Under the pieces are notes generated by a model. The model did not search any database and had not been told where the DNA came from. It was given only the letters and a program-made list of their open reading frames with translations. Made by a program: the position numbers and the translations under genes. A stretch of DNA of 33,790 bases from a virus (taxonomy: Duplodnaviria > Heunggongvirae > Uroviricota > Caudoviricetes), in the IMG/VR virus record IMGVR_UViG_2529292829_000010, positions 1-33,790 of that record; one strand, given 5' to 3'. Below, piece after piece: positions 4,425 to 18,447 of the stretch; the first letter of the stretch is position 1, and each line of letters starts with the position of its first letter.

Positions 4425-4482
4425 AAAAAGGGCGGCAGAGCAGTCACGGAGTAAAACTGATACCGCCAAACGTCACCAGAAA
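4425..4482 (-). ncRNA. dicF: DicF-like small regulatory RNA (ftsZ translation inhibitor)
   Basis: Minus-strand transcript 5'-UUUCUGGUGACGUUUGGCGGUAUCAGUUUUACUCCGUGACUGCUCUGCCGCCCUUUUU-3' matches my recollection of DicF, with a GC-rich 3' stem and U-run. Sits directly upstream of dicB, as in the Qin dicB operon. Confidence 0.75.
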
Positions 4483-11273: not shown

Positions 11274-11399
11274 TTTTATGGATCACCTTTCTGATTGATT
11301 TCATATTGGCGAGGTAGCAGGAGTTAAGTAGAATTGCTGCGGGTGCTTGAGGCTATCTGTCTCAGGCATGAACACCAAAAGGCAGATAGAGAAAAGCCC

Positions 11400-11462
11400 C
11401 AGTTAACATTACGCGTCCTGCAAGACGCTTAACATTAATCTGAGGCCATATCTATGCGACAC
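11400..11462 (-). ncRNA. Putative Sok-like antisense RNA
   Basis: Minus-strand promoter-like TTGACC (plus 11491-11496) with a weak -10 near 11466-11471. Antisense to the mok-like start at 11454. Hairpin GCGUCUUGCAGGACGC (plus 11412-11427) near the predicted 3' end. Boundaries inferred. Confidence 0.35.
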
Positions 11463-11513
11463 ATAGAGATTAGCCTCTTACGGACCGAAAGGTCAAGGAG
11501 AAGCAGGCTATGA
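11454..11513 (+). CDS. mok-like leader ORF, 19 codons, translationally coupled to hok
   Basis: ATG at 11454; its TGA stop (11511-11513) overlaps the hok ATG (11510-11512). Confidence 0.35.
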   Translation: MRHIEISLLRTERSRRSRL

Positions 11514-13168: not shown

Positions 13169-13540
13169 ATGCGTATAGAGTTTGTTTTGCCTTACCCGCC
13201 AACGGTGAACACCTACTGGCGACGTCGTGGCAGTACATATTTTGTATCAAAAGCCGGTGAGCGTTATCGCCGTGATGTGGCGCTCATTGTTCGCCAGCAG
13301 CGACTGAAATTAAATCTGTCCGGAAGGCTAGCGATCAGGATTATTGTGGAGCCACCGGATAAGCGCCGTCGTGACCTGGACAATATCCTGAAAGCGCCAC
13401 TGGATGCACTGACACATGCGGGACTGCTTATCGACGACGAGCAGTTTGATGAAATTAATATTGTGCGCAGTCAGCTTGTACCTGGTGGTCGGCTGGGCGT
13501 GAAGATTTACGAAATTACAGGTGGTAACGATGGCACGTGA
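13169..13540 (+). CDS. rusA: Holliday junction resolvase RusA, 123 aa
   Basis: [31 protein letters not shown] closely parallels E. coli RusA [31 protein letters not shown]. AGAGG RBS. Confidence 0.9.
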
Positions 13541-13895
13541 TATTCAGATGGTTCTTGAGCGTTGGGGAGCGTGGGTGGCAAATAATCATGAGGATGTCAC
13601 ATGGCCATCGATTGCTGCTGGCTTTAAAGGATTAATACCGTCGAAAGTTAAATCGCGTCCGCAATGTTCCGACGATGACGCAATGATCATTTGTGGCTGT
13701 ATGGCCCGGTTGAATAAGAACAACAAAGAATTACACGATTTGCTGGTAGATTATTACGTGGCGGGCATGACGTTTATGGCGCTAGCACGAAAGCATGGTC
13801 GTTCGGATTGCTGGGTTGGCCGTTTGTTGCAAAAGGCTGAAGGGATAGTTGACGGCATGTTGATGATGCTTGATATCAAGCTGGACATGGACTGA
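13530..13895 (+). CDS. Late-gene antiterminator Q (short QuuD-type), 121 aa
   Basis: ATG at 13530 six nt after AGGTGG; overlaps the rusA stop. Cys cluster [16 protein letters not shown]. Canonical Q position between rusA and the late region. Confidence 0.75.
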
Positions 13896-13939: not shown

Positions 13940-14419
13940 TTAAATGTTTTTATAATAACTCGCTTTTTCGTTAAAATTATTTTTGTTTTCTCTGGATGGA
14001 GAACTTACGTAGTTTTCCCATGCGCTATACGTTTTGATTAATGCTTCTCGCTCTGTAGGTGATTTTGTGTTTGCCTTGAGTTTTTCAAATGGTTCTTTTG
14101 CTGCATTTAAAACGATCATCATTTGCTCGATGTCGCAGTCAGCGATTGCTTTTGATATATCGGGATCCCAGCCAACTCTCACTAACATATCTTGCTTGCT
14201 GGAAGTAATAAATTGTGTAGTGTTGATTATCATTTCTCCCTTATATAGAAGCTTTAAAAAATTATTTTTGTTAACTTGCTGGGGCGTGTTGTCCAAGGTG
14301 ATATTTTCGCATTTCTTTAAATACGCATAATGATCACTATTTCTGTTTTCTGCGGAAGATTGAGCCGTACACCCTGTAATGATCAATGTACTTAATAATG
14401 TCAATGCTATTTTTTTCAT
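13940..14419 (-). CDS. Lipoprotein of unknown function, 159 aa (moron)
   Basis: Signal peptide MKKIALTLLSTLIITGC with lipobox ITGC. Gene is visibly AT-rich relative to its flanks and oriented against the surrounding operons. Confidence 0.75.
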   Translation of the reverse strand: MKKIALTLLSTLIITGCTAQSSAENRNSDHYAYLKKCENITLDNTPQQVNKNNFLKLLYKGEMIINTTQFITSSKQDMLVRVGWDPDISKAIADCDIEQMMIVLNAAKEPFEKLKANTKSPTEREALIKTYSAWENYVSSPSRENKNNFNEKASYYKNI

Positions 14420-14495: not shown

Positions 14496-14523
14496 TTTAC
14501 AATCGTAAAAAATCAAATATGCT
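14496..14523 (+). promoter_or_regulatory. Candidate Q-dependent late promoter (PR'-like)
   Basis: -35 TTTACA (14496-14501), 16-nt spacer, -10 TATGCT (14518-14523). A short-transcript terminator follows about 35 nt downstream. Confidence 0.35.
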
Positions 14524-14557
14524 GTTAAGAGTGGTTACTTCGCCACACAGCTTAAAC

Positions 14558-14577
14558 CCGCCGCCAGGCGGTTTTTT
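14558..14577 (+). terminator. Candidate tR'-like intrinsic terminator
   Basis: CCGCC-GCCA-GGCGG followed by TTTTTT. Confidence 0.5.
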
Positions 14578-15048: not shown

Positions 15049-16098
15049 ATGGCTAATACTGTAAAAATATCCAGTTGTGAGTTAATCAACGCTGATTGTC
15101 TGGAATTTATCCAGACCTTACCGGAAAATTCTGTCGATCTGATAGTCACAGACCCGCCATACTTTAAAGTGAAGCCCGAGGGCTGGGATAACCAGTGGAA
15201 GGGCGACGATGATTACCTGAAATGGCTGAATCAGTGTCTGGCGCAGTTCTGGCGGGTACTGAAGCCCGCAGGAAGTCTTTACCTGTTCTGTGGTCATCGC
15301 CTGGCATCTGACACCGAAATCATGATGCGTCAGCGCTTTAATGTGCTGAACCACATTATCTGGGCGAAGCCGTCAGGGCGCTGGAACGGGTGCAACAAGG
15401 AAAGCCTGCGGGCGTATTTCCCGGCAACAGAGCGCATTCTGTTTGCAGAACATTATCAGGGGCCATACCAGCCCAAAAATGACGGCTATGAGGCAAAGGG
15501 GCGTGAGCTAAAACAGCACGTCATGGCCCCGCTGATTTCTTACTTTCGTGATGCGCGTGAATCACTGGGAATAACGTCAAAACAGATAGCGGAAGCCACC
15601 GGAAAGAAAAACATGGCTTCGCACTGGTTTGGTACCAGTCAGTGGCAATTACCGAACGAGGGTGATTACAACAAATTGCAGGCGTTGTTTGCGCGTGTTG
15701 CGGCAGAAAAGCATCAGCGAGGGGAACTGGAAAAGCCACACCACCAGCTGGTCAGCACATACAGTGAACTGAACCGGCAATATGCCAGCCTGCTGGAAGA
15801 GTATAAATCTTTGCGGCGTTATTTTTCCGTATCGGCTGCCGTTCCGTATACGGATGTCTGGACGCATAAATCCGTGCAGTTTTATCCGGGCAAACATCCC
15901 TGTGAAAAACCGGCAGATATGTTGCGGCAGATAATTGAGGCCAGCAGTCACCCTGGTGATTTGGTTGCGGATTTTTTTATGGGTTCAGGTTCAACGGTAA
16001 AAGCGGCGATGGCACTGGGGCGTTGTGCGATTGGTGTTGAGCTGGAGACCGGACGTTTTGAACAGACAGTCAGGGAAGTTCAGGATTTAATCGTTTGA
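15049..16098 (+). CDS. DNA methyltransferase, beta-class amino-MTase (probably N6-adenine), 349 aa
   Basis: Motif IV IVTDPPYF near the N-terminus and motif I DFFMGSGST near the C-terminus (IV-TRD-I order). No adjacent restriction endonuclease. Confidence 0.85.
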   Translation: MANTVKISSCELINADCLEFIQTLPENSVDLIVTDPPYFKVKPEGWDNQWKGDDDYLKWLNQCLAQFWRVLKPAGSLYLFCGHRLASDTEIMMRQRFNVLNHIIWAKPSGRWNGCNKESLRAYFPATERILFAEHYQGPYQPKNDGYEAKGRELKQHVMAPLISYFRDARESLGITSKQIAEATGKKNMASHWFGTSQWQLPNEGDYNKLQALFARVAAEKHQRGELEKPHHQLVSTYSELNRQYASLLEEYKSLRRYFSVSAAVPYTDVWTHKSVQFYPGKHPCEKPADMLRQIIEASSHPGDLVADFFMGSGSTVKAAMALGRCAIGVELETGRFEQTVREVQDLIV

Positions 16099-16148
16099 AA
16101 CGGATGAGATTGCAGAATTAATTACGCACCATTATTATTCTGCTCCCG

Positions 16149-16224
16149 GCCCTTTAGCTCAGTGGTGAGAGCGAGCGACTCATAATCGCCAGGTCGCTGG
16201 TTCAAATCCAGCAAGGGCCACCAT
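16149..16224 (+). tRNA. tRNA-Ile2 (anticodon CAU, lysidine type; ileZ/ileX-like)
   Basis: Cloverleaf: acceptor GGCCCTT/AAGGGCC, D-arm GCTC-AGTGGTGA-GAGC, anticodon loop CUCAUAA (CAT at 16182-16184), T-loop TTCAAAT, encoded CCA. Close to E. coli ileX as I recall it. Confidence 0.85.
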
Positions 16225-16231
16225 CACATAC

Positions 16232-16305
16232 CGCCATTAGCTCATCGACAGAGAGTGCCAGCTTTCGAAACTGGCTGTGTGGGGCTCGGGTCCCCGATGG
16301 CAATC
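16232..16305 (+). tRNA. Degenerate tRNA-like element (possible pseudo-tRNA, Arg-like UCG)
   Basis: tRNA-like arms, but the D-loop lacks GG, the anticodon stem GCCAG/CTGGC encloses a 9-nt loop CTTTCGAAA, the T-loop is CTCGGGT (no A58), the acceptor pairing is imperfect and there is no CCA. Confidence 0.35.
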
Positions 16306-16320
16306 TATTATCTGCATTAT

Positions 16321-16397
16321 GCGTTGTTAGCTCAGCCGGACAGAGCAATTGCCTTCTAAGCAATCGGTCACTGGTTCGAATCCAGTACAACGCGCCA
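16321..16397 (+). tRNA. tRNA-Arg (anticodon UCU, decodes AGA; argO-like)
   Basis: Acceptor GCGTTGT/ACAACGC, anticodon stem ATTGC/GCAAT with loop CTTCTAA (TCT at 16355-16357), T-loop TTCGAAT, encoded CCA. Confidence 0.85.
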
Positions 16398-16411
16398 CGC
16401 TTATTTTTCCA

Positions 16412-16435
16412 GGCTCGCTTCGGCGGGCCTTTTTC
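16412..16435 (+). terminator. Intrinsic terminator after the tRNA array
   Basis: GGCTCGC-TTCG-GCGGGCC (one G-U pair) followed by TTTTTC. Confidence 0.65.
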
Positions 16436-16572
16436 ATATCCGCGCCACGCCCGGCGAATATCAAAAAACCACAGAGCCTTTCAGGGGTGAGCTTACGGGA
16501 TGGTCAGTGTGACTTTCTCTGTGGGCTGGTCACCACCGGGCGCAGGCTCACCCACTAAAAGGAAAAGTCACG

Positions 16573-16998
16573 ATGTTTGGTATTTTCAAAAAGAAAACCC
16601 GCAAGGCCATTACCGAAGTGAAGAAGATGGAGAACCGCGACGCAGTGGAGGCGACCGTCTGGGGCGCGTATTCCATTGCATACGCTGACGGCACCTGTGA
16701 TGCGAAAGAAATCGCAGTACTGGAGAAAACCATTGCAGCACTTCCTGCCTTTGCGCCGTTCTCCGGTGAGATTGCCCAGATGAGCGCCAATATCCGCGCC
16801 CGTTATGAAGCATCCCCGCGTTCAGCCAATGCCGAAGCCCTTCGTCAGCTGGCTGATGTCGCCGGTACTGATGATGCAGTTAATGTGCTGTGCCTGTGTC
16901 TGGATATCGCTGACCAGGATGGCATTGGTCCGGATGAAGAAGCACAGCTCAAGAAAATTGCGCAGGCGCTTCAGCTACCGCTGGAGCAGTACCTGTGA
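16573..16998 (+). CDS. TerB-like domain protein, 141 aa
   Basis: Helical pattern of acidic and hydrophobic residues (AYADGTCDAKEIAVLEKTIAAL ... LDIADQDGIGPDEEAQLKKIAQAL) typical of TerB/DjlA-N-type domains. AAGGA 10 nt upstream. Confidence 0.6.
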   Translation: MFGIFKKKTRKAITEVKKMENRDAVEATVWGAYSIAYADGTCDAKEIAVLEKTIAALPAFAPFSGEIAQMSANIRARYEASPRSANAEALRQLADVAGTDDAVNVLCLCLDIADQDGIGPDEEAQLKKIAQALQLPLEQYL

Positions 16999-17147
16999 AA
17001 AGTGCGCGCCTTGTGCTGGCTGCCATCCTGCTGTTTCTGGTAGTGGCAGTGGATTTCACCGGACGGCTGATGTCGGTGCTGGCAGATGGTGTGCTGGTGG
17101 TGATGGCGCTGGTCGTGCTCCGGCCTTTACTGCGTAAATCTGAATAA
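16995..17147 (+). CDS. Putative 50-aa membrane microprotein (GTG start)
   Basis: GTG at 16995 overlaps the TerB TGA (GTGA). VKSARLVLAAILLFLVVAVDFTGRLMSVLADGVLVVMALVVLRPLLRKSE has two hydrophobic segments. Not in the ORF track. Confidence 0.4.
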   Translation: MKSARLVLAAILLFLVVAVDFTGRLMSVLADGVLVVMALVVLRPLLRKSE

Positions 17148-17198
17148 CACCACACAAAAGGCATCTGCGGGTGCCTTTGACGGGGTATTGTTTTTTAC

Positions 17199-17222
17199 GG
17201 GCCGCTGGTGGCCCTTTTTTAT
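17199..17222 (+). terminator. Intrinsic terminator before the lysis cassette
   Basis: GGGCC-GCTGGT-GGCCC followed by TTTTTTATTT. A weaker hairpin AAAGGCA...TGCCTTT lies at 17157-17178. Confidence 0.7.
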
Positions 17223-17239
17223 TTACAGGAGAAAAAAGT

Positions 17240-17632
17240 ATGTCTGAACCCTTATCCGGTTCCGGTACGGCTGCGGCGCTCGGTGGAGCGACGGTATTCG
17301 GGCTGTTTACCGGAACGGATTTCGGGATTGTGTTTGGTGCGTTCGCCGGGGCGTTATTTGTGGCAACAATTCCGCAGGCGCTTTCAGCCTGGCGTGTGGC
17401 GGCGCATTTTCTGGTGTCGTTCATTATCGGCGTGCTGGGGGCAGGGGTTCTGGCATCCTGGCTGGTAAAGCACACAGGGTTTGACGGAGCGCCTGTCGAC
17501 GCACTGTGTGCAGTACTGGTGTCAGTGGTGTCGGTGAAGATTCTCTCGTTCATCCACCAACAGGATATCGCATCACTGGTGTCCGGCCTGTTATCTCGCC
17601 TGCGTGGCGGAGGAGGCGGCAATGTTAAGTAA
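17240..17632 (+). CDS. Holin-like membrane protein, 130 aa, three predicted TM segments
   Basis: ATG at 17240 with AGGAGAAAAAAG upstream. Three hydrophobic segments. Immediately upstream of a second membrane protein and the endolysin. Confidence 0.55.
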   Translation: MSEPLSGSGTAAALGGATVFGLFTGTDFGIVFGAFAGALFVATIPQALSAWRVAAHFLVSFIIGVLGAGVLASWLVKHTGFDGAPVDALCAVLVSVVSVKILSFIHQQDIASLVSGLLSRLRGGGGGNVK

Positions 17633-17900
17633 CCTTCCCGGATTACTGAATGTGGCGTTATGCACGGTTATCGTGCTGACGCTCTTTTTTTATCGTCGCC
17701 GTGATTCCAGACATAAACCGCTGATGTCATGGCTGGCCTGGCTGCTGATGCTGCTGTATGCCTTTGTGCCCCTCAGCTATCTGTGTGGTCGCCCGTTAGC
17801 GGTGAACTGGCTGGCGGTGGGGCTTAATCTGCTGTTCTGCGTGCTGGTGATTCGCGCACGCGGGAACGTTTCAAAAATCTTTGTATTACGAAGGCGCTGA
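17622..17900 (+). CDS. Second holin/antiholin-like membrane protein, 92 aa
   Basis: ATG at 17622 overlaps the end of the previous ORF. Three hydrophobic segments and a basic C-terminus RARGNVSKIFVLRRR. Confidence 0.55.
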   Translation: MLSNLPGLLNVALCTVIVLTLFFYRRRDSRHKPLMSWLAWLLMLLYAFVPLSYLCGRPLAVNWLAVGLNLLFCVLVIRARGNVSKIFVLRRR

Positions 17901-17901
17901 T

Positions 17902-18447
17902 ATGAAGTCGAAAGATGAAATTTTTGACGAAGTTCTGGGAAAAGAGGGCGGTTACGTCAATCACCCGGATGATAAAGGCGGACCGACAAAATGGGGTATT
18001 ACAGAAAAAGTCGCCCGCGCTCACGGATATCGCGGCGATATGCGTGACCTGACGCGCGGGCAGGCGCTGGAAATACTCGAGGCGGATTACTGGTTCGGAC
18101 CACGTTTTGACCAGGTCGCCGCATTATCCCCTGATATTGCTGCAGAGTTGTGTGATACCGGTGTGAATATGGGGCCGTCCGTAGCATCGAAAATGCTCCA
18201 GCGCTGGCTGAACGTTTTCAACCTGCAAGGCAAATTGTTCCCGGATATGGACGCAGACGGGCGTATCGGCCCCCGCACGATTAATGCACTACGGGCTTAT
18301 CTGCAAAAACGCGGCAAAGACGGCGAACTGGTAATGCTGACTGCGCTGAACTGTACGCAGGGTGACCGCTATCTGGAGCTGGCAGAGAAACGGGAGGCTA
18401 ACGAGTCATTTGTCTACGGCTGGATGAAAGAGCGCGTAGCAGTTTAA
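17902..18447 (+). CDS. Endolysin: GH108-family muramidase with C-terminal peptidoglycan-binding domain, 181 aa
   Basis: N-terminal FDEVLGKEGGYVNHPDDKGGPTKWGIT is the GH108 signature. C-terminal region resembles PG_binding_3. Follows the holin-like genes. Confidence 0.8.
   Translation: MKSKDEIFDEVLGKEGGYVNHPDDKGGPTKWGITEKVARAHGYRGDMRDLTRGQALEILEADYWFGPRFDQVAALSPDIAAELCDTGVNMGPSVASKMLQRWLNVFNLQGKLFPDMDADGRIGPRTINALRAYLQKRGKDGELVMLTALNCTQGDRYLELAEKREANESFVYGWMKERVAV

Follow-up and report, generated by a model that had tools for sequence, protein, structure and literature searches.

The closest described relatives of the locus treated here are the tciA, tciB and tciC genes of phage P1 (gp74, gp75 and gp76), which are part of the ban operon, with phage tRNA genes on either side. 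These P1 genes were scored as non-essential by CRISPR interference (PMC10695390), and the tci operon is absent from about half of the P1 subgroup-1 phage-plasmids (PMC9603915). The tciA gene of a lytic N4-like phage has been called unexplained (PMC4319500), and the pair is discussed as functionally untested in three papers (PMC9603915, PMC4319500, PMC11652158). We analysed a two-gene unit in a stretch of 33,790 nucleotides (nt) of a Caudoviricetes virus (IMG/VR record IMGVR_UViG_2529292829_000010, positions 1 to 33,790). This whole stretch is called the window, and all positions refer to it. By sequence, it is near certain that the unit is the already catalogued phage tciA/tciB pair first named in P1.

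Identity and conservation of the pair

The first gene, tciA, encodes a protein of 141 amino acids (aa) that matches the Pfam TerB family (PF05099) with 32.4 bits, above the cut-off of 24.4 (E 1.2e-7), and PHROG 632 over its full length (E 4.3e-65). Most TciA homologues carry a precomputed PF05099 match. The predicted model of TciA is all-alpha and TerB-like, with the two solved TerB-like structures as its best matches. A search of PDB sequences with the TciA profile gave nothing meaningful, so that only the fold searches were informative. In NCBIfam there is no family for TciA or TciB, and TciA finds only a sub-threshold match to the DjlA model NF006948 (E 0.06, 12.9 vs 162 bits).

TciA contains two acidic D-G-x5-E motifs, D39-G40-x-C-x3-E46 and D116-G117...E122. 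Both are retained in all lineages compared, even in the 43%-identical type from O157. We take such paired motifs to be the defining feature of TerB, and presumably they bind metal. The N-terminal tail, MFGIFKKKTRKA, is basic and predicted to be disordered, and its pattern M-F/L-G-x-F-K-K-K is conserved across the 12 TciA-like sequences read. These come from the 247 representative clusters that make up the TciA-type TerB subfamily, a small one given a total of 1.84 billion. Among the best 150 of the 247, most are stand-alone proteins of 140-150 aa or shorter fragments.

Two kinds of candidate fusion were considered and set aside. The longer TciA-like representatives are explained by mis-called starts or a tandem duplication, and not by fusion to membrane segments. 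P0171, a protein of 196 aa with TerB and DUF3927 parts that might have served as a Rosetta-stone fusion, is a P1-type sequence from a single contig with a frameshift-like junction (LEQLYLMVIK vs LEQYI*), and is probably an artefact.

As for the second gene, tciB, its 50-aa product matches the Pfam family DUF3927 (PF13064) with 49 bits (cut-off 25) and PHROG 1470, "TciB-like", with an E of 6.5e-24. It is 100% identical to a database protein of E. coli (P0001) seen on 234 contigs. TciB is strongly hydrophobic (grand average of hydropathy, GRAVY, 1.45), so that it must reside in the membrane; its hydropathy plot has two peaks, and its ends are basic. Seven residues are invariant in 39 diverse members: R5, D20, F21, T22, S27, D31 and P44. 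With these 39 homologues as input, AlphaFold2 models TciB as one uninterrupted helix (residues 2-48), with a predicted local distance difference test score (pLDDT) of 92.8. On this modelled helix D20, S27 and D31 would share one face (spacing i, i+7, i+11). A profile search finds 862 DUF3927 clusters at 90% identity. A scan of species-representative genomes with a TciB pattern returned 6 loci only, the pattern being too strict for such a short protein, and the breadth of the family was taken from the other searches.

Regarding the pairing of the two genes, we collected a locus set of 172 sequences, made of the window and of loci from viral contigs, representative genomes and annotated records, and searched their stop-to-stop open reading frames (ORFs) with both profiles. 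TciA lies directly upstream of TciB, on the same strand, in 166 of the 168 sequences with a TciB-like ORF, and the aligned regions are 3 nt apart. The unpaired cases (L008, L011 and L147) are deletion remnants. In about 160 copies the junction is CTGTGAAAAGTG, where a GTG start overlaps the preceding gene by 4 nt. Divergent copies, including that of P1, have TGATG or TAATG instead (ATG start, 1-nt overlap), and in N4-like and jumbo phages the two genes abut or are 3 nt apart. The tight spacing, usually an overlap, thus persists though the start codon changes.

The median pairwise ratio of non-synonymous to synonymous substitution (dN/dS) is 0.06 for tciA and 0.33 for tciB. By these values both genes encode proteins under purifying selection, which for TciA is very strong. 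Taken together, sequence, fold, conservation and gene order indicate that the two products are made together by translational coupling.

The pair is also abundant. A query of 841 nt, made of the pair with its upstream leader and the first part of the holin gene, has at least a partial match in 1149 of 5426 complete E. coli genomes, and at least 80% of the query is matched in 165. In E. coli chromosomes the Prokaryotic Genome Annotation Pipeline (PGAP) labels the two genes as "tellurite resistance TerB family protein" and "DUF3927 family protein".

An earlier note, made from the letters of the window alone, had proposed a 141-aa TerB-like protein followed by a 50-aa ORF with two hydrophobic segments and a GTGA overlap. 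The Pfam score and fold match agree with the first, and the DUF3927 match, GRAVY and two hydropathy peaks with the second. Conservation of the pair across prophages, which the note had asked to be checked, is seen in the 166 of 168 sequences above. The note had also offered the unit as a fresh, uncharacterised candidate, and this did not hold, as the pair is known as P1 tciA/tciB, as DUF3927, as PHROG 632/1470 and through PGAP annotation. The window therefore adds no new kind of element, and what is added is a sharper picture of the family.

Layout of the locus and the stx slot

The features around the pair are the following.

13521-13895: Q-like antiterminator gene (PHROG 79).
14496-14571, + strand: candidate late promoter (pR'-like, 14496-14523) with a short-transcript terminator (tR'-like, 14558-14571), called from consensus matches only.
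15049-16098: DNA methyltransferase (MTase) gene, upstream of the tRNAs.
16148-16223, + strand: tRNA-Met (tRNA calls).
16231-16304, + strand: decayed tRNA-like sequence between tRNA-Met and tRNA-Arg, with an Rfam tRNA score of 23.7 bits, below the gathering score of 29, and no ARAGORN call.
16321-16397, + strand: tRNA-Arg; the tRNA block upstream of tciAB is 16148-16397.
16411-16438, + strand: intrinsic-terminator-like hairpin just 3' of tRNA-Arg, the upstream boundary, with a GC-rich stem of 8 pairs (16411-16430) and then the T-run TTTTTCAT.
16439-16572, + strand: 5' leader of tciA; it contains an imperfect, long stem (about 16486-16556) and, at 16559-16563, the Shine-Dalgarno sequence AAGGA.
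16573-16998, + strand: tciA, 141-aa ORF, ATG start, TGA stop at 16996-16998.
16995-17147, + strand: tciB, 50-aa ORF, with its GTG start in the GTGA (16995-16998) that overlaps the tciA stop.
17157-17178, + strand: stable hairpin directly 3' of the tciB stop, AAAGGCATC-TGCG-GGTGCCTTT.
17199-17222, + strand: intrinsic-terminator-like hairpin, the downstream boundary, GGGCCGCTGGTGGCCC and T6 (stem 17199-17214), 18 nt before the holin start.
17240-18447, + strand: lysis cassette (Pfam/PHROG), with a holin at 17240-17632, a second holin ending at 17900 and a GH108 endolysin ending at 18447.

Both genes are preceded by ribosome-binding motifs, AAGGA 9 nt before the tciA ATG and GGAG 8 nt 5' of the tciB GTG. 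tciB is separate from the holin gene, whose start lies 92 nt further downstream. Among the ORFs of the window there is no tciC gene between tciB and the holin, where only hairpins are found.

The proposal of terminators on both sides of the unit, also made in the earlier note, is matched by the terminator-like hairpins with stems at 16411-16430 and 17199-17214. The upstream hairpin also forms in the RNA fold of the leader region. The downstream one gives the unit a terminator of its own, as in a moron, in the form of a hairpin and T-run at 17199-17222. This hairpin and the one directly after tciB (17157-17178) are invariant in the alignment of phiP27, EC71 and pPE4. Analogous hairpins 3' of tciB, of different sequence, are present in the early-left (pL) and 186-like contexts described below. 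The tRNA-Met to tRNA-Arg region has its counterpart in related Stx (Shiga toxin) phages and other lambdoid phages, which carry three tRNAs at the matching place, against the decayed copy here.

In terms of transcription, no sigma-70-like promoter was found before tciA in a consensus scan of 15900-18000, weak or non-sigma-70 promoters being outside its reach. Upstream, the promoter-like site at 14496-14523 is followed, about 35 nt on, by a GC hairpin and T-run, and a reverse-strand gene (13940-14419) separates it from the Q-like gene. This is likely the pR'/tR' late-promoter unit, which would drive the MTase, the tRNAs, tciAB and the lysis genes. Because of its position 3' of the Q-like gene and the late promoter, and since no promoter of its own was found, we infer that tciAB sits in a Q-dependent late transcript and would be expressed by read-through, on induction, alongside the lysis genes.

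The tciA leader folds with -66.8 kcal/mol (z -2.25). It is 86% identical to the leader in O157:H7 prophages, where the TerB protein is only 43% identical. It varies little among 64 unique copies, and one stem pair changes from T-A to G-A to G-T across the variants. The leader could be a cis-regulatory element, or merely a block preserved by recombination.

Rfam finds in the leader and trailer only the tRNAs and a sub-threshold STnc100 match over tRNA-Arg and the terminator. A 2026 preprint links the small RNAs PasA and PasC to TerB-containing prophage regions next to the holin operon. As a source of these RNAs, the hairpin and terminator after tciB were rejected, the published probes having no match in the window within 3 mismatches; PasA was further set aside as it lies on the opposite strand in E2348/69. 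Two other RNAs are encoded elsewhere in the prophage: the antisense RNA DicF (4430-4481, - strand, 76.7 bits) and the sok antitoxin RNA of a hok/sok-type module (11341-11512, + strand, 106.7 bits).

The place of the unit between tRNAs and holin had been compared in the earlier note with the slot where Stx phages carry stx, and two cases bear this out. In phiP27 the order is MTase, tRNA-Ile, tRNA-Arg, stx2eA, stx2eB and then the same two holins as in the window. Directly after stx2eB, the last ~95 nt of tciB are kept (L004, NC_003356, 3400-3680, against window 17053-17239). The remnant starts at the D20-F21-T22 codons and is frameshifted by a 1-nt deletion, and both downstream hairpins are kept. 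The remnant shows that the stx2e cassette took the place of tciA and of the 5' portion of tciB in an ancestor that had the same holins, which documents turnover of the toxin slot.

The second case is a prophage of O157:H7 (L172), with the order tRNA-Ile, tRNA-Arg, TerB (143 aa, 43% identical), a DUF3927 gene (55 aa), a nanS-p-type esterase and holin S; the surroundings of stx2 in Stx phages are arranged in the same way.

Phage contexts of the pair

Further temperate contexts were found by look-ups of divergent TciB proteins. In an early-left operon of Enterobacter and Klebsiella lambdoid prophages, tciAB are the first genes, after the repressor and before kilR, gam and recT. In 186/P2-like prophages of Salmonella, the pair is in the early operon, after cII and fil. 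In P1 and D6 it lies in the ban region.

Virulent phages carry it as well. A tblastn search of annotated phage genomes gave TciA-like genes in 100 records, virulent phages included. The N4-like phages Pollock and FSL SP-058 have a TerB gene (30-37% identical) with DUF3927 immediately after it (in Pollock, 54.5 bits in Pfam and E 1e-23 to the TciB profile). A DUF3927 gene also follows TerB in Pantoea phage LIET2 and Pseudomonas phage ZY21. In jumbo phages of Erwinia and Salmonella, terB is followed by a 60-aa hydrophobic peptide that is weakly TciB-like. Finally, in the virulent N4-like Vibrio phage BUCT194 (L189, 1-1926), a TerB gene is followed by one for a TerC-family membrane protein (Pfam 141 bits) and then by one for a TciA-like TerB, the three being a phage-borne partial ter system.

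The cassette thus moves among at least six phage contexts, strictly virulent phages included. Since it is kept by virulent phages and stands in lytic operons of temperate ones, it most likely serves lytic growth of the phage and not the lysogen. tciC is absent from the lambdoid early-left, 186-like, N4-like and jumbo contexts examined, and is therefore not defining for the cassette.

Some side observations concern these loci. In the early-left copies (L174-L181, 2100-4153), a variable defence hot spot adjoins the cassette: between the repressor and tciA there is either RexA-RexB, or a KilA-N/BstA-type gene, or no gene at all.

TerB and DUF3927 pairs are found about 0.5-1.5 kb from phage tRNA genes in at least four unrelated groups: lambdoid late, P1/D6, Erwinia/Salmonella jumbo and a Pseudomonas phage. 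The loci are the window, P1 (L001), D6 (L195), Asesino (L187), pSal-SNUABM-04 (L193), ZY21 (L192) and the O157 prophage (L172). This proximity to tRNAs seems to exceed what is expected from position alone.

Two loci carry labels that seem not to fit their Escherichia-type region. One is PP818812 (L002, "Actinobacillus phage vB_Apl-pPE4"), with DNA 90.7% and TciA 99.3% identical to the window. The other is a contig of a "Bacillota bacterium" metagenome-assembled genome (L007), with a TciB 86% identical. These host or taxon labels look doubtful and may come from contamination or mis-binning.

Candidate function and known systems

TerB of the ter operons is described as an amphitropic peripheral membrane protein (bioRxiv 10.1101/2025.09.30.679545; PMC7823757), and resistance to pore-forming colicins and some phages is reported for the ter operon (PMC4319500). 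Because of these two properties we favour a role in energising or closing the membrane. In this proposal, translational coupling of the two genes would yield an inner-membrane module akin to a minimal TerB-TerC, with the task of conditioning or protecting the membrane of the infected cell. Taken as one statement with the identity of the pair, we hold it tentatively, with somewhat less than even confidence.

TciB would insert in the inner membrane and present the conserved acidic and polar stripe D20, S27 and D31. TciA, a small cytoplasmic protein, would reach the membrane by its basic-hydrophobic N-terminal tail and by TciB, and its paired acidic motifs would bind a divalent cation or a membrane partner. 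The two proteins would then correspond, in minimal form, to TerB and TerC of the ter operons, an analogy supported by phage BUCT194, which has TerB, TerC and a TciA-like TerB together. In effect, the ion and energy state of the membrane would be stabilised or re-set while the phage grows lytically. The cell would thereby become less sensitive to depolarising insults, such as DNA entry of a superinfecting phage, pore-forming colicins or premature holin triggering. Such a role would be accessory and non-essential.

Several points weigh against this proposal. Divergence of TciA and of TciB is uncorrelated across ten phages (Spearman rho 0.19, p 0.21). P1 and D6 share 30% identity in TciA and 61% in TciB, the window and P1 share 86% and 44-46% (44% in the discordance comparison), and Pollock and the Enterobacter early-left type share 32% and 62%. 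The partners are thus interchangeable and have reassorted, which argues against a tightly co-evolving protein-protein interface. Despite this reassortment, the pairs always consist of one TerB type and one DUF3927 (L186, L190, L195, L001, L174 and L182 against the window). As to topology, TciB may be a hairpin or else a long helix within an oligomer, AlphaFold2 favouring the single long helix. From the positive-inside rule one would place the conserved TciB core on the periplasmic side or in mid-membrane, at a distance from a cytoplasmic TciA. No TciA-like TerB fused to a membrane segment was seen among the longer proteins that were inspected (from 150 listed of 247 clusters). Terminators on both sides, as in an autonomous moron, could mean expression in the lysogen. 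Lastly, the literature searched holds no experiment on any TciA or TciB, and the mechanism rests on analogy with ter-operon phenotypes.

The proposal of exclusion or abortive infection in the earlier note corresponds to a prophage defence, in which expression of the pair in the lysogen would exclude other phages or abort their infection, as do Bunzi, Shango and Dionysus. TerB domains are indeed part of validated systems, and Dionysus combines a TerB-like protein with a membrane pore-former (bioRxiv 10.1101/2022.05.11.491447; 10.1101/2025.09.30.679545). The ter operon has a phage-inhibition phenotype (PMC4319500), the unit is bounded by terminators like a moron, and its early-left copies are found at a known hot spot of defence genes, beside RexAB or a KilA-N/BstA gene. 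However, neither protein matches any family of PADLOC-DB v2 at E<=1, a collection that includes Bunzi and Shango and lacks Dionysus (2025). The consensus scan shows no promoter-like site before tciA, and no gene for a helicase, ATPase or pore-former partner is adjacent. Furthermore, the virulent N4-like and jumbo carriers have no lysogen to protect, and the temperate copies stand in lytic operons, early ones included. The evidence leans against defence, which we consider unlikely. In general PHROG and Pfam scans, no sequence relation of the pair to T4 Imm/Sp, HK97 gp15 or lambda/P22 SieB surfaced.

A more speculative form of the membrane proposal, which we also regard as doubtful and would place slightly lower, gives TciB an active part. 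Its helices would form oligomers with an acidic site in the inner membrane that binds or conducts cations and is gated or read by TciA. Virulent and temperate phages would use it early to re-set the divalent-cation or proton balance, and the repeated placement of the pair beside tRNA clusters in unrelated phages may reflect a common part in sustaining translation under host stress or defence.

Quite unlikely is a host takeover function, an early arrest of cell division or growth, as suggested by "inhibition of cell division" in the tci name. This name comes from homology only (P1 GenBank notes). Division and host-shutoff genes are found next to the pair, namely kilR, fil of 186 and the dicF-like region in the P1 ban operon. 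PHROG files it under "moron, auxiliary metabolic gene and host takeover", and in a preprint on the P1vir transcriptome tciA/B/C are placed with icd and kilA. But the TerB fold and DUF3927 do not resemble known inhibitors of FtsZ or MreB, and the unit is late here, beside lysis genes, when a block of division would matter little.

Improbable, too, is a function in lysis timing, with TciB as an antiholin or holin modulator and TciA as its cytoplasmic sensor. The unit lies immediately 5' of two holins on the same late transcript, and TciB resembles antiholins in being a small membrane peptide whose ends are charged. In Pfam and PHROG, however, TciB matches no holin or antiholin family, only DUF3927 and PHROG 1470. 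The pair is far from lysis genes in P1 and in lambdoid early-left, 186-like, N4-like and jumbo phages, in O157:H7 an esterase gene stands between it and the holin, and phiP27 works with the pair replaced by stx2e. Of the suggestion in the earlier note that the pair protects the host membrane during lysis timing, the membrane protection is still compatible with these data, whereas the link to the lysis cassette is not general.

Least probable of all is lysogenic conversion to tellurite, metal or colicin resistance, suggested by the database name "tellurite/colicin resistance protein" and by homology to TerB of the ter operon, as tellurite resistance by this operon needs terB, terC, terD and terE together (terB alone is insufficient), the window has no other ter genes and only tRNAs and holins as neighbours of the pair, and virulent phages carry the pair as well. 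A review speculates on protection by tci from tellurium salts (PMC11652158), which counts for it.

A function for the pair would annotate many phage and prophage genomes, as about one fifth of the complete E. coli genomes match at least part of the query. It could also inform the role of the TerB domain, both in ter operons and in defence by Bunzi, Shango and Dionysus.

Finally, we compared the pair with known systems. It shares its position (MTase, tRNAs, cargo, holins) with the stx and stx2e morons of the lambdoid slot between Q and holin, but the cargo is unrelated in sequence and function, and tciAB is also found in non-lambdoid and virulent phages. TciA weakly matches the part of the DjlA profile that covers the central TerB-like region, and both proteins conceptually place a TerB-like domain at the inner membrane; in DjlA, however, the anchor is fused in one polypeptide, together with a J domain.

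Dionysus (DinA-DinB-DinC), Bunzi and Shango likewise join a TerB-like protein to one or more membrane proteins, and a "membrane surveillance" role has been proposed for them. The pair of the window differs in having no DinA, DinC, helicase or ATPase partner, and these systems are host-encoded and anti-phage, whereas tciAB is phage-borne, in virulent phages too.

In TerB-TerC of terZABCDE(F), a TerB-fold gene is likewise directly upstream of an integral membrane partner with conserved acidic residues. In contrast, TciB has 50 aa and no similarity to TerC detectable with Pfam, TerZ, TerA, TerD and TerE are missing, and TciA, of a small separate subfamily, matches the TerB profile modestly (32 bits).

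P1 tciA-tciB differs by the presence of tciC, a 35-aa single-helix peptide that the window lacks, by the TGATG overlap with an ATG start in place of GTGA with a GTG start, and by its place in the early, C1-controlled ban operon, as opposed to a late operon before holins. Both pairs adjoin phage tRNA genes, and they share the same families (PHROG 632/1470; PF05099 and PF13064), order, strand and start/stop overlap.

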